NCBI GenBank assembly: GCA_964618775.1
Contig: CAZUDG010000002.1
Location: 1 to 53,801, forward strand
Length of the DNA: 53,801 nt
Direction of reading: 5' to 3'
Origin: an uncultured Lachnospiraceae bacterium
GTDB taxonomy: Bacteria; Bacillota; Clostridia; Lachnospirales; Lachnospiraceae
Part shown: positions 11,279 to 29,055 of the stretch, in pieces
Numbering within the stretch: the first letter of the stretch is position 1
Layout of the letters: the number at the start of each line of letters is the position of its first letter
Program-made: the position numbers and the translations under genes
The notes under the pieces: model-generated
Database searches by the model: none
What the model saw: only the letters and a program-made list of their open reading frames with translations
Told to the model about the DNA's origin: nothing

Positions 11279-11308
11279 TTGACATTTAATACCAGAGTGT
11301 TGTAAAAT
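11279..11308 (+). promoter_or_regulatory. Candidate promoter of the Tad-type operon
   Basis: TTGACA at 11279-11284, an 18-nt spacer ending in TG, then TAAAAT at 11303-11308. It lies about 25 nt upstream of the first gene. Confidence 0.4.
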
Positions 11309-11329
11309 TATGTCATCTTAATCAGTGAG

Positions 11330-11902
11330 GTGAGCTACATTAATTTAAAAATGTATAGCCTACTAATCTTTTTGCTTCTTGCGGTTTATCATGATCTGAA
11401 ATCCTACAAAATCAAAAACTATCTGATTGTAATTGGAGTGTTAACTGGACTTATAATTAACCTTATAGAGCTTGGTTTAGTAGCTAATTATTCCTTTTTA
11501 CTAGCAACAATTATTCCAATAATTATACTTTTTCCTCTTTTTATAATTAAGGCAATGGGAGCAGGGGATATAAAATTATTCTCAATAATTGGATCCTATC
11601 TAGGAGTTTATCCTATTATTAAAATCATTATCATATCATTTTTTGTTGGCGGAATTATGTCAATAATATATCTAATTCGTACAAAATCTTTTATTAAAAG
11701 ATTTGTACACATGAAGTCTTATATAACAAATCTTATAAGATATGATCAATTCAGTATTAATTCAGAAAAAATCAGTATTAAAACCATGAAGAAAGATCCA
11801 TATTATCAAAAGGAACGAGATGGAAGAGAAGGTGTAATTCATTTTTCTCTTGCAATTTTTGCAGCTTTTATAATATATATTTTTATAACATATTTTAATT
11901 AA
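11330..11902 (+). CDS. A24 family prepilin peptidase (CpaA/TadV-like), copy 1
   Basis: Polytopic membrane protein with the two catalytic Asp contexts (AVYHDLKSYKI and AMGAGDIKLFSIIG). Start is either GTG 11330 or ATG 11351. Confidence 0.8.
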   Translation: MSYINLKMYSLLIFLLLAVYHDLKSYKIKNYLIVIGVLTGLIINLIELGLVANYSFLLATIIPIIILFPLFIIKAMGAGDIKLFSIIGSYLGVYPIIKIIIISFFVGGIMSIIYLIRTKSFIKRFVHMKSYITNLIRYDQFSINSEKISIKTMKKDPYYQKERDGREGVIHFSLAIFAAFIIYIFITYFN

Positions 11903-11926
11903 ACAAGATGGAAGAGGTGAAAGCAA

Positions 11927-12931
11927 TTGGGCATAACTTTAGGGATTTTCGATTCAGATGTGGAGTATTCCAGTCAATTAATGAATTATATAAAAAGAAA
12001 AAATAAGAATATTAATCAAGTAAGAATTTTTACTAATAAGAATATATTATATGACTTTCTTCTAGACAATCAAATTAATGTACTGCTCATTAGTGAAGAC
12101 AAGATACAAGAAGATATAGAACATGATAATGTTGGCCACATATGTATTCTTTCAGAAGGGACCTATATATCGGAAGGTGGTGTGGATGAGGGAGAAAGGA
12201 TCATATATAAATATCAATCGGCAGAAAAAATAATATGCGAATTAGTAAACTATTATCCTGAATTATCTAATCAAAAAAACACTATTCCTTCTAATAAATC
12301 CAAAATTATAAGTATATTTTCTTTAAATGAAGATTTTGTTCAAGAGACCTTTTCCTTTAATCTGGCTAATGAATTTGGAAATATTAAAAAGACTTTACTA
12401 ATAGATTTTTGCTTACTACATGGTAGGGAACAGTTATCAAGTTTCAATTCTGATAAGAATCTTTCTGAGTTTATCTATTTTCTCAAATCAAAAACCCCTG
12501 ATATACTTTTTAAAATGAATGAACATATTCAAAGTCTAGGTAGTTTTAAATACTTAAACGGTGTTATGTTTGGACCAGATCTTTTTGATCTAACGACTAA
12601 AGATATAGAATTTTGGCTAGGAGAATTATATGCTACAGATTATGAAGTGATAATTTTTAACGTTAGCTGCTATATCCCCATCATGCTAGACTTATTTAGA
12701 AAAAGTAATGAGCTTTTCTTAGTTACTAAAGGAGGTATGTGGAAGCAGAACCTATATAATAATTTAATAAAACAATTAAACTGGTCTGGTTATGAAGATG
12801 TAATAAGAAAGATTATTACTGTTGAAGTAGATAAAAGGCTTTCAGGGACAAATGATGAATATCAGATTAACAATATTTTTACAGAAGAATGGGGTGATTT
12901 AACAGGTAATTATGCAAGAAATATTGGATGA
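11927..12931 (+). CDS. TadZ/CpaE-like protein: receiver-like N-domain plus MinD/ParA-like domain with a destroyed Walker A
   Basis: Gene position (immediately upstream of and overlapping the CpaF ATPase gene) and architecture both fit TadZ. KIISIFSLNEDFVQETFSFNLA aligns column-for-column with the canonical K-x-I-x-V-x-S-x-KGGVGK(S/T)T-x-x-x-NLA, but GGxGK is replaced by EDFVQE. TTG start. Confidence 0.6.
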   Translation: MGITLGIFDSDVEYSSQLMNYIKRKNKNINQVRIFTNKNILYDFLLDNQINVLLISEDKIQEDIEHDNVGHICILSEGTYISEGGVDEGERIIYKYQSAEKIICELVNYYPELSNQKNTIPSNKSKIISIFSLNEDFVQETFSFNLANEFGNIKKTLLIDFCLLHGREQLSSFNSDKNLSEFIYFLKSKTPDILFKMNEHIQSLGSFKYLNGVMFGPDLFDLTTKDIEFWLGELYATDYEVIIFNVSCYIPIMLDLFRKSNELFLVTKGGMWKQNLYNNLIKQLNWSGYEDVIRKIITVEVDKRLSGTNDEYQINNIFTEEWGDLTGNYARNIG

Positions 12932-14126
12932 GATAAAACAAGAAGTTGTCAGTAGAATCGATCTATATAAAGAATACCAAGATGAAGAAATCATAGATGT
13001 AATTGATGAAGTTATTATCAAAAAGAGTAAAGAGCTTTATATAAGTACAAGTAATAAAAGGCAGTTAAGAAAACTAATATTTAATTCTATTAGGCGTTAC
13101 GATATCCTTCAGGATTTGATAGAAGATCCAACTATAACTGAAATAATGATAAATGGTTCAGACCATATATTTATTGAACAAAAAGGAAAGATTAGTTTAT
13201 GGGACAAGCAATTTGAATCAAATAAGAAGCTAGAAGATATAATACAAGCAATAGTATCAAAATCCAATAGAATTATAAATGAATCTAATCCAATTGTAGA
13301 TGCAAGGCTTTCAGATGGATCAAGAGTAAATATAGTGTTACCTCCAGTGTCTTTATCAGGGCCAATTGTTACAATTCGTAGATTTCCTGACAAGCCTATA
13401 TCAATGAAAAAGTTAATTCAGTTTGGAACCCTAACGAAGGAATTAGCAGATTTTTTAGAAAAGCTTGTAATTGCTGGATATAACATATTTATAAGTGGGG
13501 GAACAGGCTCTGGAAAAACAACCTTTTTAAATGTGCTTTCTAATTTTATTCCATCAGATGAAAGAATAATAACAATAGAGGATTCAGCCGAGCTACAAAT
13601 CCAAAACATAAAAAACCTAGTTCGCCTAGAAGTTAGAAATGCCAATGTTGAAGGCAAAAATGAAGTTTCTATAAGGGAATTAATAAAAACTAGCCTTAGA
13701 ATGCGACCTGATAGAATTGTGGTAGGGGAAGTTAGGGATGCAGCCGCACTTGATATGCTACAAGCCATGAATAGTGGACATGACGGGTCTTTATCAACAG
13801 GGCATGCTAACTCTACAAGAGATATGCTTAATAGGCTAGAAACCTTAGTTTTAATGGCTCTGGATTTACCAATTACTGCAGTACGTAAGCAGATAATTTC
13901 CGCTATTGATATAATAATTCATATAGAAAGGCTTAGGGATAAAAGTAGAAAGGTAGTTGAAGTATCAGAGGTTATAGATTGTATAGAAGGGGAATATGTG
14001 GTTAATAAATTATATGTATTTGAGGAAAGAGGCCAGGATGAAAAAGGAAATGTAATTGGAAAGATTGAGAAGACGAATAATAAAATAATTAATGATTTTA
14101 AGTTAAGAAAAGCGGGGATTTTGTGA
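12912..14126 (+). CDS. cpaF: CpaF/TadA family type IV filament secretion ATPase
   Basis: Walker A GGTGSGKTT, Asp box IITIEDSAEL, Walker B RIVVGEVRD and His box GHDGSLSTGHAN are all present. It overlaps the upstream gene by 20 nt. Confidence 0.93.
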   Translation: MQEILDEIKQEVVSRIDLYKEYQDEEIIDVIDEVIIKKSKELYISTSNKRQLRKLIFNSIRRYDILQDLIEDPTITEIMINGSDHIFIEQKGKISLWDKQFESNKKLEDIIQAIVSKSNRIINESNPIVDARLSDGSRVNIVLPPVSLSGPIVTIRRFPDKPISMKKLIQFGTLTKELADFLEKLVIAGYNIFISGGTGSGKTTFLNVLSNFIPSDERIITIEDSAELQIQNIKNLVRLEVRNANVEGKNEVSIRELIKTSLRMRPDRIVVGEVRDAAALDMLQAMNSGHDGSLSTGHANSTRDMLNRLETLVLMALDLPITAVRKQIISAIDIIIHIERLRDKSRKVVEVSEVIDCIEGEYVVNKLYVFEERGQDEKGNVIGKIEKTNNKIINDFKLRKAGIL

Positions 14127-14866
14127 TAGAAGACTACAATGAGTATCAATATTCAAAAAAGGAAAGGTATAAATACTTCATTCAAGGTGCTTTAATAGGA
14201 GGATTTGTAGGTTATCTATTTTATGCAAATGTTTTTGGAATATTATTATTAACCCCATATGGACTCCACTTTGTAAAAAAGAAAAAGAAGGAATTAATAA
14301 ACAATAGAAAATGGCAGTTAAATTTAGAATTTAGAGATGGTTTATTAAGTGTTTCTTCCGCCTTAAATGCTGGATACTCCATAGAAAATGCTTTTGAACA
14401 GGCAGTATTAGATCTAAAGCTTATGTATCAAGAAGACTCACTAATAGTAGTTGAATTTGAAAGTATAGTAAATCAAATTCGTATGAATAGGACAATAGAA
14501 TATATTTTAGAAGATTTAGCAAAGAGAACAGATATAGAGGATATAAGCAGTTTTTCTGCAGTATTTAACACAGCAAAGAGAACTGGAGGGGACCTAATAA
14601 AGATTATAAGAAATACAGGTAATAATATAGGAGACAAAATAGAAGTAAAGCGAGAAATAAAAACCTTAATATCTGCCAAAAAAATCGAATCAAAAATTAT
14701 GAGGATTATACCATTTGGAATTATTATTTATTTAAGAATGTTCTCGCCAGGTTTTTTAGATCCACTGTATAACAACATTGTTGGCTTTTTAATTATGTCA
14801 ATAATATTAATGATATATCTTTTTGCATATAAGATGTCAGAAAACATTATGAATATTGAGGTGTGA
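14123..14866 (+). CDS. tadB: TadB-like platform protein (T2SS-F family)
   Basis: An N-terminal TM, a cytoplasmic helical domain and C-terminal TM helices. The GTGA start/stop overlaps cpaF. Gene order is typical of tad loci. Confidence 0.7.
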   Translation: MIEDYNEYQYSKKERYKYFIQGALIGGFVGYLFYANVFGILLLTPYGLHFVKKKKKELINNRKWQLNLEFRDGLLSVSSALNAGYSIENAFEQAVLDLKLMYQEDSLIVVEFESIVNQIRMNRTIEYILEDLAKRTDIEDISSFSAVFNTAKRTGGDLIKIIRNTGNNIGDKIEVKREIKTLISAKKIESKIMRIIPFGIIIYLRMFSPGFLDPLYNNIVGFLIMSIILMIYLFAYKMSENIMNIEV

Positions 14867-14867
14867 C

Positions 14868-16337
14868 ATGATCTTCATTAACTTTATAATATTAGCATTA
14901 TTCCTGATTTTACTGTTTAAAACAAAAGATTACGATAAGTCATTTGTAGATAAACTAGATAAAAAGAAATATAAATTAAACTATTTATTTCCAGCAGGAC
15001 TATTTGTTATCGATAATATAGCTAATATCATAAATCACATTGGTTTTTCAAAACAAGAGGAATCATTGAAAGCTATATATATAGGAGAATCCATAAAGAC
15101 TGTAAAAAGAATATATTTGTGTAATAAGATTATAATATTTGCTTTAATTATTTTTATTTTCAACCTATTTTCTATATTTAATTATTTGACCTTATCATAT
15201 AAGGGAGACTTGCAAAAGGACAACTTAATCAGCAGGCCATTCACATCAGCGGAAGTGAAAACAATAAAGTTAGATGTACAGATTACAGAAGATGACTTGG
15301 TTGTTTTAACTGAAGAAGTTGACTTAGAAGTCCAAGGGAGAAAATATAGTAAAGAAGAGATTAGTGAATTAATAATTATGGCAAAAACACATATTGATTC
15401 ATCTATATTAAAGGACAACAAATCAAAAGATCAAATAGGCTCTGATATTAACTTAGTAGAGTATATTCCAGATACAGATTTATATGTTGACTGGGAATTA
15501 GAGAATTACCAGCTGATTTCTAGAGATGGAATTGTGAATAATAAAGAAATAGAAGATAAAATTCCCACTTGGGTAAAAGCAGTCATTTCATATTATGATC
15601 TAGAAGTAGAATATAAAATTGACCTTACAGTCTTACCAAAAGTCTTTACAAAAGAAGAGGAGGTATATAGAAGATTAAAAGAGGAGCTAGAAAAAGTCGA
15701 CCTAGATTCAGCGAGTGAAGAGACTTTAATCCTTCCAAGTTCTATAGATGATATGGAAGTATACTGGAAGGAAAAAAAAGACAGGTCAAGTCTACAGCTA
15801 TTATTGGTTGGTCTGTTGGCAGCAGTGTTAGTGTTTGCAGCTTATGATAAGGATTTATACGATAAAGTAGAAGAACGTAATAGGCAAATGCTTTTAGACT
15901 ATCCAGAAATTATCAACAAAGTCACATTATTATTGGGAGCAGGAATGCCAATGGCGAATGCTTGGCATAAGGTAGTACAAGACTATAAATCAAAGAAGGC
16001 AGGTAAAAGATATGCCTATGAAGAAATGATAATTACAAGTAATGAAATTTTACTTGGGACATCTGAAATTACAGCATATGAAAGTTTTGGTAGAAGGGTA
16101 AAATTACTACCGTACCTAAGATTTGCATCACTACTATCTCAAAATGTAAAAAAAGGATCTGGAGATTTACTTAGACTGTTAGAAGTTGAAACGATGGAAT
16201 CCTTTGAAGAACGTAAGGAATTATCAAAGAGAATAGGAGAAGAAGCAGGAACTAAGCTCCTGTTTCCTATGATCCTTATGCTTTTGATAGTTTTAATAAT
16301 TATAATTATTCCAGCCTTCCTGTCATTTCAATTTTAA
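14868..16337 (+). CDS. tadC: TadC-like platform protein with a long N-terminal extension
   Basis: The C-terminal roughly 190 aa resemble a T2SS-F domain (LLDYPEIINKVTLLLGAGMPMANAW ... terminal TM). The N-terminal roughly 300 aa hold extra TM helices and a charged soluble segment. The ATG at 14868 follows GAGGTG; the ORF-track TTG at 14856 is the alternative. Confidence 0.65.
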   Translation: MIFINFIILALFLILLFKTKDYDKSFVDKLDKKKYKLNYLFPAGLFVIDNIANIINHIGFSKQEESLKAIYIGESIKTVKRIYLCNKIIIFALIIFIFNLFSIFNYLTLSYKGDLQKDNLISRPFTSAEVKTIKLDVQITEDDLVVLTEEVDLEVQGRKYSKEEISELIIMAKTHIDSSILKDNKSKDQIGSDINLVEYIPDTDLYVDWELENYQLISRDGIVNNKEIEDKIPTWVKAVISYYDLEVEYKIDLTVLPKVFTKEEEVYRRLKEELEKVDLDSASEETLILPSSIDDMEVYWKEKKDRSSLQLLLVGLLAAVLVFAAYDKDLYDKVEERNRQMLLDYPEIINKVTLLLGAGMPMANAWHKVVQDYKSKKAGKRYAYEEMIITSNEILLGTSEITAYESFGRRVKLLPYLRFASLLSQNVKKGSGDLLRLLEVETMESFEERKELSKRIGEEAGTKLLFPMILMLLIVLIIIIIPAFLSFQF

Positions 16338-16433
16338 AACAATAGAAACTGCAAGATATTATAACTAGGCCGGAACCTAACATAAGAATAAAAGGAAACC
16401 CCAGTTATCTAATAAAAACAAGGAGGAAAGAGA

Positions 16434-16625
16434 ATGGATATTAAAACATTAAAAGATATTATCAGCGAATTTATTATGGAAGAGGAGGGAATTGGGGTTG
16501 TAGAGATAATCTTAATATTAGTTATACTAATTGGCCTTGTTATTATTTTTAGAGATCAAATGACATCTTTAGTTAATCAGATATTCTCTTCTATTACTAA
16601 CAAAACAGGGAATATTATAAGGTAG
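16434..16625 (+). CDS. flp: Flp-type (type IVb/c) pilin precursor
   Basis: A 63-aa protein with a charged leader ending in EEEG, then IGVVEIILILVILIGLVIIF (Glu at +5 if cleaved after Gly19). Strong RBS AAGGAGGAAAG. It lies directly after the platform genes. Confidence 0.75.
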   Translation: MDIKTLKDIISEFIMEEEGIGVVEIILILVILIGLVIIFRDQMTSLVNQIFSSITNKTGNIIR

Positions 16626-19106
16626 ATGAATAAAAAGTATAGAATTGATGGATCAATAACGGTGTTTTTATCAATGACTTTGTTAATTATAATATCTTTA
16701 GTTATGACTACTGCAGAAGCTCTTAGAGCATATAGTATGGCAGTATATACTGAAAGGGCACTGTATACAGCGCTAGATTCAGTATTTGCAGAATTTTACC
16801 ACCCCTTATTTAAAGAATATCATGTGTTTGGACTAGATGGTGGATATGGAGGCAGTTTAATCCAAGAAAAGATAATAGAAGAAAAAATAACAGATTATAT
16901 GGACCATACCTTCTATCCAAGTAATAATATTTCCTTTGGTAATTTTAATGTGCCTATACAGAGTTTTAATATGTTTGGTATAAACGCTAATAATGTAAAT
17001 ATTAAAGACATTAAAACCTTTGAGGATTATAATGGAGATTTGTTTTACACCCAAGGAGTCGATTATACCAGGTATAGTCTTGCAGCAGAAGGGATGGACA
17101 AGCTTCTTGAACAATTTAATTTGATCAAGGAAAAGGAATTAAAGGATGTTGTAACAACACAAGAAGTACTAGAAAAAAAGATGTTTGTAGAAGAAAAGGT
17201 ATCTTTAATCAATGATGACATAATTGCCTTATCTAATTTATTAGATGGAATTATTATTACAAATGAGGGGCCGAAATTAAACAATGAAGGAAATTTATAC
17301 ATAAAGCAAAGTTTCGTTAAAAAAATATGTAGTGATAATAAGATAATTTATGATCCCTATCCCATTAACTCATGGGTTTCTGCATCTTTAAAAGGTAAAT
17401 ATATTAATCCGACCAGCGAAATTAATAAAAGTGTTAGCCTGTTAAATTCATTAATAGAGAACGGGGCAATTAGAGAAAAGACAGAAAAAACCTATAAAGT
17501 TAAATCCAAAATCAGTCTAGAAAGCATTGAAGATAAAGATGAAAAAGCCAGGATAATACAGGAAATAAAAGAAGAAAAGAATATTATTAAAGACTGTGAT
17601 AAATATGAAGAAGAGCTTATCAGTGATTTCAGAAATAGTATTAAAGTAATCAAAAATTTAACATCTAACACATCTAGCCTAATACCAAATACAATCGCAA
17701 TAGTAAACAGATTAATTATAAATCAAAACCAATTATCCGACTCAATAACCGAATATAAAACCTTATTATTAGGAAAAAAAGATATTTTAGAAAAAGATTT
17801 ATATTCAAGTTTGTGGGGTGACTATCTAGAACTAGAAAAATATAAAGGTAATTATTCAGGAGATAAAGATTTTTATAATTTTATAGGAATGAAGAACACA
17901 TTAGAGGATAATCAATTAATATTAAATAAAATTCAAAAGATTATGGATATAAAAATCTCATCAAAAAAGGATACATGGGAAAATGCAAAATTAAGTCTAA
18001 ACCAAGCAAATGATATCCTAAAAAAATATAGTTTTGAATTTCTCAATTTAGACTATAGGTCCTTGAGTAAAAAAGAGGAAGAGGCAGATGTATTTGAGGG
18101 AGTTAACAACATTATAAGTGATGGCATAATGGAACTTCTGTTAGTAGATAATGTTAATATCTCAGATAAGAGTATAGGAGAGGTTGAGATAAGCCGTTTA
18201 CCGTCATATAAATATAAAAACAAAAAGTCATTAGATACAAATTATAATATAAGTGAATTAAATTTAACGAGTTCTTTTAATGGATTTAAAGAAATATTAG
18301 CTTCCTTTACAGATAGTTTTAATGGTGAAGAACTCCTAATCTCTTCGGCAGATTCAATAGGTGGGTCCTTATTATATCAAAAATATATATTAGATCATTT
18401 TGGGTCATATCAAAGTGAAAGAAAGGTAAACATACCGACATCCCTAGATTATGAGGTAGAGTATATTCTCCAAGGCAAAAAATCTGATTCTGAGAATTTG
18501 AAATCCTTTGTATTTAACTTGTTTGTTTTTAGAACACTAATGAACTCAACATCTTTATTTGCTAATTCTGAGAGTAATGAACAAGCAAGATTATTGGCAG
18601 TTTCCCTAGTTGGTTTTCTAGGTCAACCGATATTAGTGACAATAGCAAAAAGTATAATATTATTCACATGGAGCATAGCTGAAAGTATTGTTGAAATATC
18701 TGCCTTATTACAAGAAAAAAGCATAGCATTACTAAAACAAACTAAGGATTTTGAAATAGATTTAAAAGATTTACCCTTTTTAAATAGGAGATTTATTCAG
18801 GCTAAGGTAAACAAAATGAGCAGCAGCAAGTCACCACAACACTTAGATTATGAAGACTACCTAAACATTATGCTACTATTTAAGAACAAGAATGAAAAAA
18901 CTTTCCAGGCTCTAGATTTAATTCAAATAAATCTTCAGAATAATTATGAAGACTCCTTTCTTATAAGTAATTGTATTTATGGCATTAGCGCTTCTGCGGA
19001 CTTTTCTATGGAAGAAAAACTTGTTTCTTTACCATTTATCCAAAAAACAACAGGAAAAGCTAACAAAAAATATTTACACTCTACTAATAGGGAATATTCA
19101 TATTAG
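16626..19106 (+). CDS. 826-aa Tad-locus protein with a pseudopilin/TadE-like N-terminal anchor; function unknown
   Basis: The start abuts the flp stop (TAGATG). The N-terminus GSITVFLSMTLLIIISLVMTTAEALR resembles TadE-type hydrophobic N-termini. The long N/K/E/I-rich body has no motif I recognise. Hydrophobic helices lie near residues 640-700. It may correspond to a Clostridial DUF family, which is unverified. Confidence 0.55.
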   Translation: MNKKYRIDGSITVFLSMTLLIIISLVMTTAEALRAYSMAVYTERALYTALDSVFAEFYHPLFKEYHVFGLDGGYGGSLIQEKIIEEKITDYMDHTFYPSNNISFGNFNVPIQSFNMFGINANNVNIKDIKTFEDYNGDLFYTQGVDYTRYSLAAEGMDKLLEQFNLIKEKELKDVVTTQEVLEKKMFVEEKVSLINDDIIALSNLLDGIIITNEGPKLNNEGNLYIKQSFVKKICSDNKIIYDPYPINSWVSASLKGKYINPTSEINKSVSLLNSLIENGAIREKTEKTYKVKSKISLESIEDKDEKARIIQEIKEEKNIIKDCDKYEEELISDFRNSIKVIKNLTSNTSSLIPNTIAIVNRLIINQNQLSDSITEYKTLLLGKKDILEKDLYSSLWGDYLELEKYKGNYSGDKDFYNFIGMKNTLEDNQLILNKIQKIMDIKISSKKDTWENAKLSLNQANDILKKYSFEFLNLDYRSLSKKEEEADVFEGVNNIISDGIMELLLVDNVNISDKSIGEVEISRLPSYKYKNKKSLDTNYNISELNLTSSFNGFKEILASFTDSFNGEELLISSADSIGGSLLYQKYILDHFGSYQSERKVNIPTSLDYEVEYILQGKKSDSENLKSFVFNLFVFRTLMNSTSLFANSESNEQARLLAVSLVGFLGQPILVTIAKSIILFTWSIAESIVEISALLQEKSIALLKQTKDFEIDLKDLPFLNRRFIQAKVNKMSSSKSPQHLDYEDYLNIMLLFKNKNEKTFQALDLIQINLQNNYEDSFLISNCIYGISASADFSMEEKLVSLPFIQKTTGKANKKYLHSTNREYSY

Positions 19107-19134
19107 AAAAACTAGAAGGATTTGATTATAGGGT

Positions 19135-19257
19135 GAATTGGTATATCCGTTCAAAACAAAGGTAAAAACAATTATTCTCTCCAAGAAAAAGAAGCATTCA
19201 TCCAAACATGCACCCAGAAACTAAAAACAACCCTTAAATGAACGGATATACCAGTTC
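19135..19257. repeat. 19-bp inverted repeat flanking an 85-nt spacer inside the Tad operon
   Basis: GAATTGGTATATCCGTTCA (19135-19153) pairs with TGAACGGATATACCAGTTC (19239-19257). 18 of 19 positions are complementary and the remaining one is G:T. Confidence 0.85.
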
Positions 19258-19296
19258 ATCCAATAATAAGTATTGGCTTATAATGAGGAGTTACAT

Positions 19297-20199
19297 TTGA
19301 AAAGTAGTAAATTATTAAAGACAAGAGGAAAAGCTTCTCTTACAGTTGAAGCAGCACTAGTTTTACCAATCTTCATATTTGCCATACTTGCATTTATATA
19401 TTTTTTACAAATACTAATAATACATGATAGTTTACAAGAAGTAATAACAGAGATAGGGCTTAACTCTGCAAAATACGGCTATGTTTATGATAGTCTTAGT
19501 GATTTCGACAAAGAATCAAAAGACAAGTTAATTATATCCACCGGTGAAACGGAAGACGATGGAATAATAGATAGTGTGATAGAAAGGGAAATTGCAAGAA
19601 GTATAGATAGTGCATATTTTAAATTAGCCCTATACGACAAATTAAATATTGATAAAGTCAATAGTTCATGTATTAAAGATGGATTTACTGGTATTAGTAC
19701 TTATTTTTCAAGTTATATGGAAGAAGATAATAATGTAGATTTAATAATTAATTACAAAATCAAAATACCTACGGTATTTATTAAGATAGATGGTTTTCAA
19801 ATAGTGCAAAGAGTAAAGCTTAGAGGTTGGAATGGTTATCAACCAGATTCTAAAATTGATATGGATTTAGACAACAAGGTTGACCAGGATGAAAGGACAG
19901 TGTACATAACCACCACTGGAATGGTTTATCATACTTCCAACCATTGTACCCATCTAAGCTTATCAATTAGGGATGTACCATTTGATCAGTTAAAGGATCT
20001 TCGTAATCATGCAGGAGGAAAATATAAAAACTGTAATCTTTGTAGTTCACAATCACAAGACATAAATACTGCCTATATTACTATATTTGGTGATAGATAT
20101 CATAGTAACAAGGGTTGTAGTGGACTCAAAAGGACTATTGAGGAAGTAGCGATTTCTCAGGTAGGCGATAGAAGATTATGCAAGAGGTGTGGTAAATAG
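19297..20199 (+). CDS. TadE-like pseudopilin fused to two C-terminal Cys/His (zinc-ribbon-like) modules
   Basis: The N-terminus GKASLTVEAALVLPIFIFAILAFIYF is a TadE-type motif. Two C-terminal repeats have the form Y-I-T-x-x-G-x-x-YH-x(4-5)-C-x-x-L ... C-x-x-C (VYHTSNHCTHL...CNLC and RYHSNKGCSGL...CKRC). The TTG at 19297 lies 6 nt after GAGGAG; the ORF-track TTG at 19273 is the alternative. Confidence 0.65.
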   Translation: MKSSKLLKTRGKASLTVEAALVLPIFIFAILAFIYFLQILIIHDSLQEVITEIGLNSAKYGYVYDSLSDFDKESKDKLIISTGETEDDGIIDSVIEREIARSIDSAYFKLALYDKLNIDKVNSSCIKDGFTGISTYFSSYMEEDNNVDLIINYKIKIPTVFIKIDGFQIVQRVKLRGWNGYQPDSKIDMDLDNKVDQDERTVYITTTGMVYHTSNHCTHLSLSIRDVPFDQLKDLRNHAGGKYKNCNLCSSQSQDINTAYITIFGDRYHSNKGCSGLKRTIEEVAISQVGDRRLCKRCGK

Positions 20200-20211
20200 A
20201 GAGGATGAAAG

Positions 20212-20646
20212 ATGGAAGATATCAGTTTATTGCTTAAAATAATAACGATAGTCTGGCTTTTTATATGCAGTGTTCAAGATATAAAAGAACAGCAAATTAA
20301 TCTTGTTTTAATAGGAGTGGGCTTTATTTCTCTGTTTACCTTATCTTTAATAGAAAATCAGCTCCTAATATGGGAAAGATTAGGGGGAGTCGGTTTGGGA
20401 ATCTTTTTAATCTTACTAAGCAAAATTACAAGAGGGCAAATTGGAATAGGTGATGGCTTAATACTATCTGTAACAGGCATTTCTTTAGGTTTTTATCTTA
20501 ATTCTATTTTACTTATATACAGTTTGTTTATTTCTGCAGTTTTTTCTATTGGGATTATGATAATTAAAAAAGCTAACAGGAAATCAACGATTCCTTTTAC
20601 TCCCTTTGTTTTTATCGTCTCCTTGGGGGTGGTCTTAGGTGAATAA
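20212..20646 (+). CDS. A24 family prepilin peptidase, copy 2 (short form)
   Basis: A 144-aa polytopic membrane protein with Asp contexts CSVQDIKEQQI and IGIGDGLILSVTG. Confidence 0.7.
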   Translation: MEDISLLLKIITIVWLFICSVQDIKEQQINLVLIGVGFISLFTLSLIENQLLIWERLGGVGLGIFLILLSKITRGQIGIGDGLILSVTGISLGFYLNSILLIYSLFISAVFSIGIMIIKKANRKSTIPFTPFVFIVSLGVVLGE

Positions 20647-21226
20647 GATGTTTAAAATCACTTGTAAAGGGAGTTATACAATTGAAGCAGCTTTAATTTT
20701 TCCATTAATATTGTATATAATTATTGCACTAGTGTATTTAGGTTTTTATTTACATGATTTTGGAAAGGTTCAAGCAGTTGTTCATGAAAGTCAAACTAGG
20801 GGAAAAGGACTGGTAAGAAATGAAGTAAATATAAACTCAGGACTACTGTCCTATTCAGATTATCTTGATAGAACTATATTTTATCCAATAGATAATGATT
20901 TTAATAAAAAAGAAAGTCAAATTGCAGAATTTATTTATAAAAGGTGCCAGGATAAACTCCTAATATCTAAAATAAATGATATAGAGGCTAAAGTAGGGAT
21001 TTTTGATATTAATTTAAAAATTATTATGGAAGTTAAATTTCCTTTTAAAATAATAGAAAAACTTTTTAATAGAGAAGGAAATATAGTAATAGAGAGTAAG
21101 GAAGAAATTCATAATCCTACGACTTATATACGAGGATATGAAGTGTCATATAATTTTGTTAAAAAAATAGATGTTGTCAACAAAGTAGTTACTGGGTTAA
21201 AAAAGTTAATTGGAATATCAAAATAA
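20639..21226 (+). CDS. TadE-like pseudopilin/minor pilin
   Basis: The N-terminus GSYTIEAALIFPLILYIIIALVYLGFY is a TadE-type motif. It overlaps the upstream gene by 8 nt. The rest is unrecognised. Confidence 0.55.
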   Translation: MNKMFKITCKGSYTIEAALIFPLILYIIIALVYLGFYLHDFGKVQAVVHESQTRGKGLVRNEVNINSGLLSYSDYLDRTIFYPIDNDFNKKESQIAEFIYKRCQDKLLISKINDIEAKVGIFDINLKIIMEVKFPFKIIEKLFNREGNIVIESKEEIHNPTTYIRGYEVSYNFVKKIDVVNKVVTGLKKLIGISK

Positions 21227-21244
21227 TATATAGGCAGGTATGTC

Positions 21245-22729
21245 ATGGTGCTAGAAGTAAAATATATAATGGATATGCAAGATAATTATTTAATATTAGA
21301 ATGCAATGAAGATAGTTTGAAAAGTTTTTCATCTAAAATGATATTAAGTAATAGGATTCCTGGATTATTAAAAACAGAAATAAGATCTATCGATGATAAA
21401 GATTTTTTCTATTACAATATAACATCAAATGATAGCTTGTTTAATATTTACGAAAATAGGTTGTTTGGTTATCAAGCCTTAAAAGATATATTAAAAGCTA
21501 TTATAAAAACTATTGAAGACAGTAGAGAGTATCTTTTAGAGGAAGAAGATTTTATATTAAAACCCGAGTCTGTTTATATTAATAAAAACAATGAGGAAGT
21601 TCTATTATGTTATTATACTAGTTATAACATACCGCTTTTGAAACAATTTGGTAAATTAATAGAGTATTTTATGAATAAGGTAGATTATAAAGATGAACAG
21701 GCTGTTTTATTAGTTTATGCCTTATATAAGATAACCAAGGAAAGCAATGTTACCTTCAAACAAATAAAAGATGAACTAAACAAGAACATACAAAACAAAA
21801 TGCCTTCTTATATTAATATAGAAAATTCAAATAATGAATATAAAATAGCAGAGACATTAAATAGTAATGGCAATGACTTAGACAAAATAGAAAATAAAAC
21901 AATTAATGGTAAGGATATAAAAAAAGGAAATGCTAATAATTACAATAATACTAATCATACAAGTTGCTCAAGTGAATTTACAAGTGAAATATCTGATGAA
22001 AAAGAAGTAATGATTTATAGTAAGAAAAGCTACATTTTAGCTTTGATATCAATTTTATCTGTATTTTTATTATTTATTATAGTATTGCGGCTAGGCTTAT
22101 TACATAACTCATTTGGAACACAAATTGATTTAATCAAATTATCATGTTTTATAATTGTTGCTGCATGTTTAGAAGGCTTATTTATAAGCAGAATTTTTCA
22201 CAAGGACAATAAGATTTCTAAGATTATTCCAGATACTAAAATCTTTGATATCTCTTATGGAAAAAAAGAAGATCCTTACAATGGTTTTAACCAAGATGAA
22301 AACTTTACTAATAATGATTGTGAAGAATCTAATAACTATATGACCCAGGTGGTAGGGAAGAATGAAGATAAGGAAGATTATAAAACCGAGATATTATCAT
22401 ATTTAGGAGGCAATCAAAGCTCATACTATTTAGAACCAAGCAACTTAATGGACGATAAGATTTATATAAATACATCTCCCTTTATAGTGGGCAATTATAT
22501 TAATGGAGTTAACTATAGGATAGAGGATTCGTCAGTAAGTAGATTTCATGCAAGATTTTTTGTTAATAACGAAAGCATTAGTGTTGTTGACTTAGATTCA
22601 ACCAACGGAACCTTTATAAACGGTTCTAAGATTGAAGCTCATACCTCCTATGAATTATATGACAGAGATGAGATTTGTTTTTCTAAGTGTAGGTTTATAC
22701 TTAAAATAAACTTTATAAAGAAAGAATAA
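21245..22729 (+). CDS. Membrane FHA-domain protein (unknown N-terminal domain, 2 TM helices, C-terminal FHA)
   Basis: A C-terminal FHA signature is present (FIVGN...SVSRFHARFFVNNESISVVDLDSTNGTFINGSKI). TM helices are SYILALISILSVFLLFIIVL and LSCFIIVAACLEGLFISRIF. The N-terminal NYLILE...ILSNRIPGLL pattern recalls a Clostridial DUF; that link is unverified. Confidence 0.75.
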   Translation: MVLEVKYIMDMQDNYLILECNEDSLKSFSSKMILSNRIPGLLKTEIRSIDDKDFFYYNITSNDSLFNIYENRLFGYQALKDILKAIIKTIEDSREYLLEEEDFILKPESVYINKNNEEVLLCYYTSYNIPLLKQFGKLIEYFMNKVDYKDEQAVLLVYALYKITKESNVTFKQIKDELNKNIQNKMPSYINIENSNNEYKIAETLNSNGNDLDKIENKTINGKDIKKGNANNYNNTNHTSCSSEFTSEISDEKEVMIYSKKSYILALISILSVFLLFIIVLRLGLLHNSFGTQIDLIKLSCFIIVAACLEGLFISRIFHKDNKISKIIPDTKIFDISYGKKEDPYNGFNQDENFTNNDCEESNNYMTQVVGKNEDKEDYKTEILSYLGGNQSSYYLEPSNLMDDKIYINTSPFIVGNYINGVNYRIEDSSVSRFHARFFVNNESISVVDLDSTNGTFINGSKIEAHTSYELYDRDEICFSKCRFILKINFIKKE

Positions 22730-22862: not shown

Positions 22863-23948
22863 ATGATATCAAAAAAGATATATACAAACTTAATGAGCCT
22901 GGGATTTAATAGTGTAAGTATAGATAAGGACAATATAAGCCTATTCCAACGTCTAGTTGGAGAAATGGTTACTGTTGTAGCCTTATATGATTGTCCCTCA
23001 GGACTAGAATATACAGCGGAGCAACTAACATATATAGACAAGCAAATTAGAAATCATTATCATAGCAAAGGGCATAGCAATGTTGATTTGCTAGGAGTTG
23101 TAATCACTAATAAGGTGGAAAATATAAGAGACGTTGCTATAATGAATAATAATTTTTGGATTTTAGACTCTGAAAAAAAGAGTCTTATTATCTATGAAAA
23201 TCAAGAAGGACAGTATAATGATATAAGAAAACAGATAGGGAATGTATTAGCTGAAGTAAGATTAGAAAGTTTAGGAGATACGTCACCTAGACCAAGACAA
23301 AGCTATTCTAATAAAGTAAGTACAAAATCAAAAAGTGGAATGATTAGAAATCTCTTATCTCAATGGAATACAATCTTAATAATAATTAATGTATTAGTTT
23401 ATTTCATAGTAGATTTCATTAGTAGAAAAAGTGGTCAAGAGCACATTGTAATGTCTGGAGCGCAATATTGGCCCTCAATAGTTCATGGACATGAATATTA
23501 TCGCTTATTAACCTATATGTTTTTGCACTCAAACATAACTCACTTAGCTAATAATATGCTGGTTATGTTTTTTCTAGGTGGAAATCTTGAAAGAGTTGTA
23601 GGCAAATGGAATTTTTTAATTATTTATTTTGGTTCGGGTGTTATAGCAGGCATTGTGTCCATGCTTTATAATATGTTTGATAATCTTAATGTTATTTCTA
23701 TTGGGGCATCAGGTGCTATATTTGGAATTGTAGGAGCTATGGTCAATTTGGTCATTAGAAACAAAGGACGTCTTGTAAATATAAGCTCTAGACAAATGAT
23801 TATGTTTGTTGTATTTAGTTTATATGGAGGACTAACAAGCCAAGGTATTGACAATGCGGCCCATATAGGTGGTTTATTTGCTGGGCTTATACTTGCAGCC
23901 ATATTTTGTAGAACTCCAAAGAGTAAAATGTATAACTATATTAGCTAA
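22863..23948 (+). CDS. Rhomboid family intramembrane serine protease with a cytoplasmic N-terminal domain
   Basis: HSNITHLANNM (H-x(3)-N region), catalytic GASGAIFG and catalytic His in AAHIGGLFAG are present, within six TM helices in the C-terminal half. Confidence 0.85.
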   Translation: MISKKIYTNLMSLGFNSVSIDKDNISLFQRLVGEMVTVVALYDCPSGLEYTAEQLTYIDKQIRNHYHSKGHSNVDLLGVVITNKVENIRDVAIMNNNFWILDSEKKSLIIYENQEGQYNDIRKQIGNVLAEVRLESLGDTSPRPRQSYSNKVSTKSKSGMIRNLLSQWNTILIIINVLVYFIVDFISRKSGQEHIVMSGAQYWPSIVHGHEYYRLLTYMFLHSNITHLANNMLVMFFLGGNLERVVGKWNFLIIYFGSGVIAGIVSMLYNMFDNLNVISIGASGAIFGIVGAMVNLVIRNKGRLVNISSRQMIMFVVFSLYGGLTSQGIDNAAHIGGLFAGLILAAIFCRTPKSKMYNYIS

Positions 23949-23951
23949 TCT

Positions 23952-24698
23952 TTAGTTAAAATCATAGATTGGCAAAGTAACTCTAAAGCATGTTTCTTCA
24001 TTGTCTGATATTATTTCAAGATTACCTACGTGTGATGATATAATACTTTTAGCTATAGGTAATCCCAAACCAGTGCCAGAGTCTTTATTTGTAAAGTAGG
24101 GATTTAAAATTTTTTCTTTTAATGCATTAGTTACAGGTTTGCCATTATCAATAATATCAATAATAAGAGTAGTATTACTGGACTTACATAATATTTGAAC
24201 CAAGCCGTAACCCCTTGGGGATGACTCGATGGCATTTTTAACAAGGTTAGTGAAGGCTTGTTTTAGCCTCATTTTGTCAAACATATAACTTGTAAAATAT
24301 TTCTTTGAAACCTCATCAACATTTAGGATAAGTTTAACGCTGCTCTCTTCGGCAAAAGATAACATAGAGTTAACAACTGACCCTATCAAAGATAATAGAT
24401 TACCCTCGCAAATTGTTACGTCTATACAGTTATGAATTTCTTTAAAGTTCTTTACTAATTCAATACTATCAGCAATATCATTTTTAATTTGATTCCAATA
24501 TTTAATATCTTTTATATCAGGATATCTACATTCCATAAGTTGTATTGAACTGTTAATTAGAGTTAGGGGATTATTGATTTCATGAAACATCTCATTCATA
24601 ACATCGTTATAGTAATCAATGTATTGGTTAACAACAGAAGAACAATCCTCACTAAGCGTTTTTGAACTATTTACATATTTATCAGTTAATTTACCCAT
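23952..24698 (-). CDS. Soluble sensor-less histidine kinase (DHp + HATPase_c only)
   Basis: H-box FHEINNPLTLI, N-box LVKNAIES, G1 IDNG and G2 GTGLGLPIAKSI are present. There are no TM helices, no PAS/GAF-sized N-terminal domain, and no adjacent response regulator. Confidence 0.8.
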   Translation of the reverse strand: MGKLTDKYVNSSKTLSEDCSSVVNQYIDYYNDVMNEMFHEINNPLTLINSSIQLMECRYPDIKDIKYWNQIKNDIADSIELVKNFKEIHNCIDVTICEGNLLSLIGSVVNSMLSFAEESSVKLILNVDEVSKKYFTSYMFDKMRLKQAFTNLVKNAIESSPRGYGLVQILCKSSNTTLIIDIIDNGKPVTNALKEKILNPYFTNKDSGTGLGLPIAKSIISSHVGNLEIISDNEETCFRVTLPIYDFN

Positions 24699-27530: not shown

Positions 27531-28862
27531 TTGTTGGAAAGTTTGTTTTACAAAAATATAATAATTTATATTTTAGTTGGTGTTTTTGCTTTAAGTATGT
27601 TATTGAAATTCGTTTTAGCTATAGGGTATTCACGAATGATAAGGGCCTCAAATAAAATGGGGAGAAATAAAAATAAATTTTTAAGAAAACTGAAACTTAA
27701 ATTTGAAAAATGTTATCAATTGAAGATAGTGGTTAACAATGTGGATGCTTTTGTTGACAAGTCTATAAATAATCACAAAGTACTTGGGATATTGTTGATA
27801 ACCTGGGAAAAGTTTAGTGGACAGATTTGGTTTTTTTCTGGGATACTTGGTCTTTCTGCGACTTTATTAGGGGTAATATTAGAAGTTGATAAAATGTGGA
27901 TATTAGGTGTATTTGTTGTTGGTTTTTTAACAAGTGGATTGTTGATGTTTTTTGAAGGACTCCTTAATGGGAAAGAGAAAAAAAATATAATTAGGTTAAA
28001 TCTTATAGATTATTTTGAAAATTATTTAAAGAATAGATTGGAACAAGAGGAAAAAAGACCAGAACTTATAGAGAAATATAAAAATGAATATTTTTCAAAT
28101 TTTGTTATTGAGAATAAAAAGATATTAAAGTATGTAGCAGCAGGAGAGGAAAAGCTCCAAGAGGACTTAGAGGAAGCAACTAAAAAAACAAAAAAAAGAT
28201 CTAGTCGTAGAGAAGAGAGACTAAGTGTAAGAATAGATAAGAAAAGAAAAAAGGAAGAGAAAGAAGCAACTAAATTATTTAAAAAACAAGCAAAAGAATC
28301 GGCAAAGCTAAAGAGAAAAGAAAACAAGAAGAAACGACAAATAGAGGCAAAGGAAAAAACAAGGCTAGAAAGATTGCAAAGAAAAGAAGAAAAAACAAGA
28401 CAAGCTGAAATTAAGAGAGCATTAAATCTTGAAAGACAGATACTTGGTAAAAGTAAAAAAACAAAGAAGATTACTACTGCTCAACAGAACAAGGAAAATT
28501 TGAAGAAAGAAATAGAAGGATTTAGGCAAATTGAAAAAAGAAATAAAGAACAAGAAAATATGGAACAAAAAGATAAGAGTAAAGATCTTGTGGATATATC
28601 AAAAATTATGAACTATACTTCAGAAAGGAATAAACGTGTATCGGAGAATGAAACTAAAAACATTGAAATTAGCCATAATCTTGAAAAGATGAAAAAGGAA
28701 GCGGCAGTTACAGTAGATAAGAGAAGTGGTTTAGGAGAAGACAAAGAGCTACTAGATAAGAGGCTTGATGAAAGTGATAATTATAAAATAAAAAGAAATA
28801 AACAACTAAGTAAGGAAGACAAACAAATAATTGAAGATATACTAAGTGAGTTTTTGGCCTAA
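27531..28862 (+). CDS. Membrane protein (3 TM helices) with a long Lys/Glu/Arg-rich coiled-coil-like tail; function unknown
   Basis: A clean 443-aa ORF with a TTG start after GGGGGA. N-terminal TM helices are followed by about 270 aa of highly charged low-complexity sequence (KKRKKEEKEATKLFKKQAKESAKLKRKENKKKRQ...). Confidence 0.5.
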   Translation: MLESLFYKNIIIYILVGVFALSMLLKFVLAIGYSRMIRASNKMGRNKNKFLRKLKLKFEKCYQLKIVVNNVDAFVDKSINNHKVLGILLITWEKFSGQIWFFSGILGLSATLLGVILEVDKMWILGVFVVGFLTSGLLMFFEGLLNGKEKKNIIRLNLIDYFENYLKNRLEQEEKRPELIEKYKNEYFSNFVIENKKILKYVAAGEEKLQEDLEEATKKTKKRSSRREERLSVRIDKKRKKEEKEATKLFKKQAKESAKLKRKENKKKRQIEAKEKTRLERLQRKEEKTRQAEIKRALNLERQILGKSKKTKKITTAQQNKENLKKEIEGFRQIEKRNKEQENMEQKDKSKDLVDISKIMNYTSERNKRVSENETKNIEISHNLEKMKKEAAVTVDKRSGLGEDKELLDKRLDESDNYKIKRNKQLSKEDKQIIEDILSEFLA

Positions 28863-29055
28863 ATTATGAATGGATTATTATAGATTAGAAGGATTAATAT
28901 AAGCATAAGGATTTATTGATAAGGTGATTATAGAATTTATTAAAGAATGAGAGTAATAACAACTAATAATTGGAATTTGTATTGAATAAGATATTTGTCT
29001 TTGATAAAATAAGAGTATGATTATAGATTATCAAATAAGAAAGGGGATTATACGA

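Follow-up and report, generated by a model that had tools for sequence, protein, structure and literature searches.

Gene content of the locus

The stretch of DNA analyzed here, referred to as the window, comprises 53,801 nucleotides (nt) from an uncultured Lachnospiraceae bacterium (contig CAZUDG010000002.1). At positions 11279–22729 it carries a promoter and eleven genes, all on the + strand, which we number gene 1 to gene 11. We interpret the locus, with a probability of roughly 0.7, as a chromosomal operon for a Tad/Flp-type (type IVc) pilus of a monoderm bacterium, representing a subtype that is conserved in Lachnospiraceae and some other Clostridia. A first-pass annotation, made from the sequence without database searches, had proposed a monoderm Tad/type IVc operon lacking a secretin and had listed eleven same-strand genes with their junctions. 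The table of open reading frames (ORFs) confirmed all of these coordinates, and no secretin was detected in the operon by Pfam searches. The eleven ORFs run from 11330 to 22729 with tiny gaps or overlaps at the junctions: genes 2 and 3 overlap by 20 nt (12912/12931), genes 3 and 4 meet in a GTGA at 14123, gene 4 stops at 14866 followed by the ATG of gene 5 at 14868, genes 6 and 7 are joined as TAG-ATG (16625/16626), and genes 9 and 10 overlap by 8 nt (20639/20646). The one sizeable intergenic gap of the operon, 19107–19296 between genes 7 and 8, houses a conserved structured element. Genes 7–11, the distal half, account for 5916 of the 11127 coding nt and hence, as had been noted, for more than half of the coding length.

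The operon is preceded by a sigma-70/SigA-type promoter, TTGACA-N18-TAAAAT, at 11279–11308 (+). This site, also named in the first-pass annotation, is the top promoter-like match (11/12) within 10.9–23.2 kb, in AT-rich DNA in which promoter-like matches overall were not enriched (87 found versus 75 expected). An equivalent site, TTGACA-N17/18-TAA[AGT]AT, lies directly 5' of gene 1 in seven relatives (loci L002, L003, L005, L008, L010, L013 and L055). Since the proteins of these relatives are just 34–50% identical, retention of the site supports a functional operon promoter. A c-di-GMP riboswitch is a feature of the Clostridioides pilA1 leader; a leader riboswitch, e.g., of this type, was sought here and none was found, and an Rfam scan returned no element in the short operon leader. 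Terminator-like sites on the + strand were not found inside the operon.

The motor of the predicted machine is encoded by gene 3 (12912–14126), a CpaF/TadA secretion ATPase (T2SSE, PF00437, 193.9 bits). It matched Caulobacter CpaF (8rkd/9e24) at 5e-97, well ahead of FlaI, the next match at 1e-46, or VirB11. Its translation shows the Walker A motif GGTGSGKTT along with Asp, Walker B and His boxes, and the protein carries no FHA domain.

Genes 4 and 5 encode the platform proteins. The TadB-like protein of gene 4 (14123–14866) has one T2SSF domain, scoring barely over the cut-off (PF00482, 25.4 bits), and two transmembrane segments. For the TadC-like protein of gene 5 (14856–16337, likely start ATG 14868), the T2SSF match at residues 354–486 is sub-threshold (18.8 bits). 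The two family alignments are nonetheless paralogous (hhalign probability 95.8%, E = 7e-9), which marks them as the paired single-domain paralogues that typify a Tad platform, and T2SSF matches were also obtained for orthologues in related loci. Gene 5 is predicted to have transmembrane segments at residues 3–21, 92–110, 311–329 and 468–486, and approximately 200 extra amino acids (aa) between the second and the third of these (residues ~111–310, window 15190–15790) are extracytoplasmic according to the predicted topology. In the gene 5 orthologue of locus L081, a T2SSF match is accompanied by a match of this extra segment to the immunoglobulin-like aBig_2 family. The external insert may substitute for the periplasmic alignment parts of diderm Tad systems, which are absent here.

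Gene 6 (16434–16625) encodes the major pilin, a 63-aa protein with the predicted cleavage site EEEG/IGVVE. A single 63-aa pilin had been correctly recognized before; its family, however, is Flp1_like (PF16982, 80.4 bits), and the Pfam search gave no match to the canonical Flp family. Gly at position -1 and Glu at +5 are invariant in 78/78 homologues, while position +6 is Ile and not Tyr as in the Flp motif G/XXXXEY.

Two prepilin peptidases are encoded in the operon, where the first-pass annotation had counted a single A24 peptidase. The first, gene 1 (11330–11902, likely start ATG 11351), is a TadV/CpaA-like protein of 190 aa (PF01478, 59.6 bits), whereas the second, gene 9 (20212–20646), is a Peptidase_A24 protein of 144 aa (PF01478, 38.8 bits). 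Both lack the methyltransferase domain and keep both catalytic Asp motifs (HDLK and GAGDIK in gene 1, QDIK and GIGDGL in gene 9).

Gene 2 (11927–12931) encodes a TadZ-like protein consisting of an atypical receiver and a ParA/MinD-like domain (TadZ-like_ARD, PF21194, 29.6 bits). It aligns across both domains with TadZ of Eubacterium rectale (3FKQ, E = 5.9e-7), a member of the Lachnospiraceae. At the Walker A position (window 12300–12330), however, it reads SLNEDFVQET in place of the SPCGGVGTST of 3FKQ, corresponding to a degenerate P-loop; the consensus of the gene 2 family at this position, SPIGGFEKT, is atypical too. Judged by this motif, nucleotide binding has probably been lost, and gene 2 is likely to be a non-catalytic scaffold. 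Taken together, searches with hidden Markov models and hhalign supported the earlier assignments of CpaF, TadB, TadC, Flp-like and TadE proteins.

To follow the gene set across species, related loci were collected through homologues of the DUF5702 protein encoded by gene 7, using one genome per species; 207 matches were confirmed and 80 loci were fetched. Searching the eleven proteins of the window against the ORFs of these 80 loci showed them on one strand and in a single collinear arrangement in essentially all loci, with absences mostly at contig ends or among the most divergent small proteins. Matches were obtained for gene 7 in all 80 loci, for genes 6 and 8 in 77 each, genes 5 and 11 in 74 each, gene 9 in 73, gene 4 in 71, gene 3 in 70, gene 10 in 65 and gene 2 in 51, whereas gene 1, the most variable member, was detected in 36. 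Carriers are nearly all Lachnospiraceae (Anaerocolumna, Herbinix, Mobilitalea, Lachnoclostridium, Eubacterium, Bovifimicola and many metagenome-assembled genomes). The closest species-level relatives are approximately 50% identical, and a 99%-identical metagenome contig (L087) also exists. Distant DUF6382-FHA proteins (22–30% identity) end the same kind of operon in more distant clostridia, and Wukongibacter has the complete set, including the second peptidase and a TadE protein with two His-Cys3 modules. A DUF5702 profile search of 1.84 billion representative proteins retrieved 6,657 clusters at 50% identity (E <= 1e-3), of which 2,646 reached 1e-30. In one gut metagenome contig (L085, 893–6655), three phage-integrase-family genes and DUF6262 genes lie immediately 5' of the Flp1_like gene, the usual place of the motor, and a PIN toxin pair lies between the FHA gene and the rhomboid gene; this operon appears to be disrupted by a mobile element.

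The locus had been put forward as a candidate new system. Given the collinear set in essentially all 80 loci and in Wukongibacter, and the thousands of DUF5702 clusters, it is instead a member of a large, conserved and vertically inherited Tad subtype and not a singular new system. The impression that its accessory proteins are functionally undescribed held up: in the literature searched we found no functional study on DUF5702, Flp1_like or Lachnospiraceae Tad pili and no work characterizing the gene set in a close relative, and DUF6382 appeared only in a type VII secretion paper (PMC11217815). Tad systems were detected computationally in Clostridia by Denise et al. 2019, and according to Pelicic 2019 (PMC6916266) type IVc pili of monoderms have been studied in Actinobacteria only, so that Tad pili of Firmicutes have gone without study.

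Proteins of the predicted filament end and of the cytoplasmic side

Four families encoded in the operon (genes 6, 7, 8 and 10) share a prepilin-type N-terminus of the form [G/A]/[S/I]-x-[T/V]-[V/I]. The largest of these proteins is encoded by gene 7 (16626–19106), an 826-aa protein that we predict to be the apical tip subunit. The distal half of the operon had been left largely without names, but its 826-aa and FHA proteins are covered by Pfam: gene 7 by DUF5702 (PF18960, 227.8 bits), and gene 11 by DUF6382 and FHA. The N-terminal motif of gene 7 is DG/SITVF, with cleavage predicted between Gly and Ser. Gly at -1 occurs in 80/80 homologues; position +5 is Phe in 72 and Tyr in 8 of them, and never Glu.

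An AlphaFold2 (AF2) model of the DUF5702 protein (mean predicted local distance difference test score, pLDDT, 79; predicted TM-score, pTM, 0.68) places an N-terminal helix alpha1 (residues 11–55) before a beta segment (119–131), a helical insert (138–773) and C-terminal beta segments (783–796 and 815–825). The insert of approximately 640 aa includes one helix of 80 residues. A Foldseek comparison of the model with the PDB gave no fold match at E < 0.05. Matches to alpha-pore-forming toxins (2nrj, 6h2f, 6zz5 and 4phq) had E-values of 2.6–5.7 and probabilities of at most 0.06, were not significant and were not used. DUF5702 is the sole Pfam match of the protein; neither a TadG-type N-terminal domain nor a vWA domain was found, and the model had no vWA-like match. 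Residues 656–695 form a hydrophobic helical hairpin. Conserved Lys, Glu and Asp lie within it, and the hairpin is therefore more likely to be buried than to span the membrane.

The apical subunit of a type IV filament is the one without Glu5, as exemplified by GspK and PilK. CpaL/TadG of Tad systems has been described as an analogue of PilK in which a large insertion precedes the donor C-terminal strand (PMC13533445), and CpaL, composed of a pilin module and a vWA domain, has been modeled at the tip together with CpaJ and CpaK (PMC12607857). The DUF5702 protein lacks Glu+5 and has a CpaL/TadG-like layout, and we therefore infer that it forms an initiation or tip complex with the products of genes 8 and 10. 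Thus, the earlier statement that TadG is missing holds at the sequence level, but a protein with the layout of a TadG/CpaL-type apical minor pilin is present. By analogy, DUF5702 would functionally replace TadG; we claim a similar role and not membership of the TadG family.

Genes 8 and 10 encode TadE-like minor pilins. For gene 8 (19273–20199; PF07811, 17.1 bits, sub-threshold), the likely start is TTG 19297 behind the Shine-Dalgarno sequence GAGGAG, chosen to agree with how the gene is called in contig L087, which is 99% identical. Its N-terminal motif is KA/SLTVE, and Glu+5 is found in 77/77 homologues. At its C-terminus the protein has two His-Cys3 modules, putatively zinc-binding, with invariant H18/C23/C52/C55 and H75/C80/C101/C104 (numbered within the last 106 aa). 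No Pfam or PDB family was found for the module. A match to the Pygopus PHD finger in the PDB (E = 0.002) was marginal and unconvincing and was not used, and a large-database search with the module returned mainly fragments of orthologues of the gene 8 pilin, giving no functional clue. The second, small minor pilin is encoded by gene 10 (20639–21226; PF07811, 27.5 bits); it has the motif KG/SYTIE, with Glu+5 in 66/66 homologues.

On the cytoplasmic side, gene 11 (21245–22729), always the last Tad gene in the related loci, encodes a TsfJ-like protein in which DUF6382 (PF19909, 161 bits) is followed by two transmembrane segments (263–281 and 296–317) and an FHA domain (PF00498, 57 bits). With two transmembrane helices, DUF6382 and FHA would both face the cytoplasm. 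The AF2 model is confident at residues 1–180, 250–330 and 390–490, and the linkers are disordered. Superposed on solved FHA structures, the FHA domain of gene 11 reaches TM-scores of approximately 0.9 normalized to those structures, and it matches the FHA domain of Bdellovibrio DgcB at E = 2e-17. In a Foldseek search with the full model the top 50 matches were all FHA domains, so that the fold of DUF6382 could not be read from them; no match to PDB sequences or Pfam came from profile searches with an alignment restricted to DUF6382. The order beta-beta-alpha-beta-beta-beta-alpha of its elements had hinted at a small fold of the pseudokinase type, like that of EssB/YukC, which we do not claim.

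The FHA residues S432, R433, H435, N454, G455 and T456 are conserved. The canonical GR motif, in contrast, is GK in 53/75 homologues and GN (Asn417) in the window. In addition, a T381-x-x-L384 motif (window 22385–22396) is invariant in 63/63 aligned homologues; it is preceded by an acidic run and lies in a disordered linker approximately 10 residues before the FHA domain. Phosphorylated T-x-x-L/I is a classical FHA ligand. An intra- or intermolecular phospho-switch as in GarA, OdhI or DgcB is therefore plausible, with T381-x-x-L384 as candidate phospho-acceptor and self-ligand. Phospho-control is further supported by Wukongibacter sp. M2B1 (L083, 11717–13469), in which the DUF6382-FHA gene is directly followed by genes for a PP2C phosphatase and a Hanks-type Ser/Thr kinase. 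In none of the 80 Lachnospiraceae loci was a kinase or phosphatase gene found within 10 kb, so that a chromosomal kinase would have to serve there.

DUF6382-FHA proteins have been described as components of two type VII secretion systems, TseJ of T7SSe and TsfJ of T7SSf; TseJ is soluble, and in T7SSe it is accompanied by kinase and phosphatase (Garrett et al. 2024, PMC11217815). For T7SSf no linked kinase was found, and its component TsfV carries a TadZ-type receiver domain (PMC11217815). The pairing of a TadZ-type receiver with DUF6382-FHA in two unrelated machines suggests, by analogy, that these two modules may interact.

The hairpin element and the genomic neighborhood

The gap between genes 7 and 8 contains a long hairpin of approximately 150 nt (19125–19267, +), which we regard as a conserved structured RNA. 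Its arms, 19125–19153 and 19239–19267, are 29 nt long, 90% complementary and 85 nt apart; no other inverted repeat of the locus comes close to them in strength. The predicted RNA fold has an energy of -43.6 kcal/mol (z = -7.7), and the hairpin has a CUCUCCAAG loop. An alignment of 31 sequences yielded the stem consensus tAGaATGGnTTGGGATrTCCGyTCTT...AAGAACGGAyATCCCAnnCCATyCTA and an invariant loop motif, CUCUCCA.G, at 19177–19185; AAAUCAUUUGCU is also conserved in this alignment.

RNAalifold predicted 24 pairs, 18 of them with compensatory double changes. When the cells of the alignment were counted, 95.6% were paired and 115 were double changes, which none of 500 shuffles matched, and controls with slid arms paired at 34–47%. 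Pairing alone cannot tell an RNA stem from DNA inverted repeats. The non-Watson-Crick cells, however, are biased to the G.U type over the A.C type, with 44 versus 15 overall (p = 2e-4) and 43 versus 10 in the inner 22 pairs (p = 6e-6), where the p-values are indicative only as the cells are not phylogenetically independent. Furthermore, the CUCUCC (CTCTCC) loop motif has the same orientation in 35/35 loci and in contig L087, and a covariance model scored the sense strand approximately twice as high as the antisense strand. Bias, orientation and score together favor a sense-strand RNA. The covariance model found exactly one copy per locus, directly 3' of the DUF5702 gene, in 54 loci and the window, 24 of which were not in the seed, and no further copies in 1.64 Mb. 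In Rfam 15 nothing reached the gathering threshold; at E <= 10 only hairpin models of miRNA precursors were matched, with 13–26 bits versus thresholds of 70–211.

Our best guess is that the element serves in RNase III-type processing or stability, or as a riboregulator bound by a protein or the ribosome, and thereby tunes how much is made of the proximal relative to the distal gene products. Should the operon be split anywhere, this is the place. Specific pairing of the CUCUCC loop with the Shine-Dalgarno sequence of gene 8 was considered but is no more than a hypothesis: the five loci read have ordinary AAGGAG/GAGG sites, so any pairing of the loop would be generic. That the C/U-rich loop acts as such a generic anti-Shine-Dalgarno sequence is speculative.

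Upstream, the operon is flanked by housekeeping genes (Cu/Zn superoxide dismutase and aldo-keto reductase). Downstream of it lie genes for a rhomboid protease, a histidine kinase on the opposite strand, HIT and MurG-like proteins, a nucleoside phosphorylase and PGI. Genes for type VII secretion, toxins or integrases were not found among the window ORFs scanned (5.2–33.3 kb). The order rhomboid-HIT-MurG-like-PGI is shared with distant relatives, among them a gut species, and conservation of this neighborhood indicates that the locus is old and vertically inherited; it looks ancestral.

Operon membership of the rhomboid gene (22863–23948, +; PF01694, 118 bits) is uncertain. It follows the FHA gene, in the same orientation, in 62/80 loci and in distant gut relatives, and no terminator-like site was found in the 134-nt gap between the two genes. 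As a twelfth operon gene it is disfavored by the insertion of the glycerol kinase gene (glpK) between the FHA and rhomboid genes in approximately 31 loci, by the wider housekeeping synteny, and by its absence from the non-Lachnospiraceae loci examined, including Wukongibacter. Conservation of the neighborhood is therefore the simpler reading. The rhomboid gene is also missing from locus L084.

Convergent to the rhomboid gene, at 23952–24698 (-), the window encodes a small soluble histidine-kinase-like protein (HisKA and HATPase_c, no transmembrane segment). It was not seen among the genes called in the related loci looked at, and a link to Tad is unlikely. Further downstream, a 443-aa ORF with no Pfam match (27531–28862, +) lies in a stretch of odd strand composition; AT skew (0.40) and GC skew (0.43) at 28001–29000 are the extremes of the window. 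At its start the window has three tandem tRNA genes (1–258, +; Rfam tRNA, 64–71 bits).

Interpretation and comparison with known systems

In the pilus that we propose, both A24 peptidases would cleave prepilins after the conserved Gly or Ala. The DUF5702 protein, the sole prepilin-type protein without Glu+5, would cap the filament like GspK/PilK and TadG/CpaL. With the two TadE-like minor pilins, which do bear Glu+5, it would make up the initiation or tip complex; CpaF, TadB and TadC would polymerize the Flp subunits onto this complex. The helical insert and the zinc modules would then represent the surface-exposed functional end, most likely for adhesion. The TadZ-like protein, having lost its P-loop, would probably act as a scaffold. 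Gene 11 is envisaged to present DUF6382 and FHA to the cytoplasm from a membrane hairpin and to couple assembly to Ser/Thr phosphorylation, its FHA domain binding phosphothreonine on a component of the machine or in its own T381-x-x-L motif. Finally, the hairpin RNA most likely balances expression or stability between the proximal part of the operon (genes for peptidase 1, TadZ-like protein, motor, platform, pilin and tip) and the distal part (minor pilins, peptidase 2 and FHA protein). A more far-reaching proposal, in which the locus represents a distinct phospho-regulated branch of type IV filament machines characteristic of Lachnospiraceae, whose giant helical DUF5702 tip, of new fold, is more than an adhesin and acts on target cells or host surfaces (e.g., by membrane insertion or effector delivery), whose assembly is gated by a DUF6382-FHA protein shared with type VII secretion and whose expression is under a new class of cis-acting RNA, seems doubtful to us.

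Several observations weigh against a Tad/Flp-type pilus working in this way. The subtype is known from its genes alone, and everything past the identity of the domains is deduced from them. The pilin is Flp1_like and not canonical Flp, lacking Tyr+6, and the Pfam scores of TadC (gene 5) and gene 8 are under the curated cut-offs. If residues 656–695 of DUF5702 were membrane-spanning after all, the protein could not exit the membrane as a pilus subunit, and its reading as a pilin fold with an insert draws solely on the order of secondary-structure elements in the model. The phosphate-binding Arg of the FHA domain is Lys in most homologues and Asn here, so that binding of phosphothreonine may be weak or lost in the window protein, and a kinase or phosphatase is linked in 0/80 Lachnospiraceae loci. 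The hairpin region, in turn, may have a role at the DNA level.

Other readings of the locus are less well served by the data. The operon could encode a Tad-derived contact-dependent or export apparatus, performing Kil-like killing or acting like the piston of a type II secretion system (T2SS), in which case DUF5702 would be a membrane-active tip or an effector, with firing on contact triggered by the FHA protein. We consider this unlikely. An FHA protein in the operon, with kinase and phosphatase genes linked in one lineage (Wukongibacter), would fit such a device, as would the fact that the same DUF6382-FHA adaptor serves toxin-exporting type VII secretion variants; DUF5702, moreover, is elongated and helical, has a hydrophobic helical hairpin and carries no adhesin-type domain such as vWA. 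However, no toxin, immunity, WXG100, LXG or EssC gene was found in the window or the related loci examined, the ATPase-fused FHA domain and the secretin that define Kil are absent, and the Foldseek matches of DUF5702 to toxins are statistically meaningless. Furthermore, the gene set is chromosomally fixed beside housekeeping genes across the family, unlike typical antagonism loci. It is quite improbable, in our view, that the locus specifies a DNA-uptake (competence) pilus in which the His-Cys3 modules of gene 8 bind DNA. These two invariant H-C-C-C modules are placed at the predicted extracellular end, and we take their spacing to recall that of zinc-dependent nucleic-acid-binding modules. 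Yet they have no detectable relation to any DNA-binding family, their homologues are essentially all orthologues of the gene 8 pilin, and neither comEA, comEC, dprA nor another competence gene was found in the window or among the neighbors of related loci. Precedent does exist, as Tad (Flp) pili mediate transformation in the monoderm Micrococcus luteus (cited in PMC6916266).

Two further readings concern DNA-level events. Phase variation classically affects loci for pili and fimbriae, and 19125–19267, with its long, near-perfect 29-nt inverted repeats around a short segment and an arm sequence, GGGATRTCCG, conserved across genera as for a protein recognition site, might be an invertible DNA switch (inverton) phase-varying the distal genes, or the remnant of a mobile element. 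The fixed orientation of the interior CTCTCC motif, the bias of stem mismatches to sense-strand G.U and the sense-strand preference of the covariance model make this very unlikely, and no recombinase gene was found among the annotated neighbors in the window. As the element occurs once per locus and nowhere else in the 1.64 Mb, it is not a miniature inverted-repeat transposable element either. Least credible, to the point of being almost dismissed, is a recently acquired genomic island peculiar to this organism. The operon is indeed AT-richer than the rest of the window (29.0% versus 33.2% GC, gene-level p = 1.4e-5) and richer in Asn, Lys and Ile (28.2% versus 22.5% elsewhere in the window), as the first-pass annotation had judged by eye. 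In contrast, GC content at third codon positions does not differ from the flanks (22.6% versus 23.7%, p = 0.45), from which we conclude that the AT-richness is an amino-acid effect of membrane and low-complexity proteins and no sign of foreign origin. In addition, the same operon is found in the same neighborhood (rhomboid, HIT, MurG, PGI) in distant relatives, and no integrase, tRNA junction or direct repeats flank it.

A conserved pilus operon of this kind bears on a large group of bacteria, as Lachnospiraceae are among the most abundant bacteria of the gut and of anaerobic digesters. At least 207 species representatives carry an operon of this type, and given the wide spread of DUF5702 over thousands of clusters, assigning one function would annotate many hypothetical genes. 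The pilus could explain attachment of these bacteria to mucus, fiber or each other. DUF5702 as candidate tip and initiation protein would carry the PilK/GspK/CpaL model of licensing over to the Tad systems of monoderms, and the occurrence of DUF6382-FHA in both Tad and type VII secretion suggests a common coupling of Ser/Thr signaling to envelope machines of Firmicutes. The covarying RNA motif adds an element outside Rfam at a fixed place inside the operon. Nothing here overturns current understanding; the locus offers an entry to Tad biology in abundant gut Firmicutes.

Compared with known systems, the likeness to the Kil loci of Myxococcus xanthus and to FHA control of type VI secretion, drawn in the first-pass annotation, is loose. 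Kil also combines a Tad core with FHA-domain proteins and many genes of unknown function, but it is a diderm system with a short secretin and two gene clusters, in which FHA is fused to the ATPase KilF (PMC8460266). Here the ATPase lacks FHA, the single FHA protein is a separate DUF6382 membrane protein with two transmembrane segments, and killing-related genes are absent. The only described relatives of this protein are TseJ and TsfJ, with which it shares the N-terminal DUF6382 and the C-terminal FHA domain and, in the case of TsfJ, the two transmembrane segments that put both domains on the cytoplasmic side (PMC11217815). A TadZ-type atypical receiver is paired with DUF6382-FHA in T7SSf as well. 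Unlike TseJ and TsfJ, gene 11 is the last gene of a Tad operon, and PMC11217815 does not describe DUF6382-FHA as a Tad component; genes for EssC-type ATPases, WXG100 or YukD-like proteins were not found among the window ORFs at 5.2–33.3 kb or in the Tad loci of the relatives.

The DUF5702 protein resembles TadG/CpaL of the diderm Tad systems of Aggregatibacter and Caulobacter in its size class (approximately 600–800 aa), its prepilin-like N-terminus, pilin-like elements broken up by a big insertion before the C-terminal strand or strands and its being encoded with two small minor pilins; TadG/CpaL is proposed to reside at the tip and to license assembly (PMC13533445, PMC12607857). It differs in showing no sequence similarity, in lacking both the Tad N-terminal Pfam domain and a vWA domain, and in its all-helical insert, which has no counterpart in the PDB.

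The Tad systems of monoderm Actinobacteria, i.e., tad2003 of Bifidobacterium breve and that of Micrococcus luteus, share with the locus the CpaF/TadA ATPase and the absence of a secretin and outer-membrane parts (PMC6916266). In both, moreover, the platform is a pair of single-domain paralogues, the pilin is very small and two TadE/F-type minor pilins occur, along with TadZ and a methyltransferase-free A24 peptidase. The locus departs from them in its Flp1_like pilin without Tyr+6, the two in-operon peptidases and the degenerate P-loop of TadZ, and it has in addition the TadC insert of approximately 200 aa, the DUF5702, His-Cys3 and DUF6382-FHA proteins and the intercistronic structured RNA. 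These same features are what is new with respect to known Tad systems in general: the pilin family, the second peptidase, the degenerate TadZ and the predicted external domain of TadC, together with a predicted DUF5702 tip protein of new fold, a minor pilin with putative zinc modules, a TsfJ-like FHA adaptor and an RNA motif between two cistrons.

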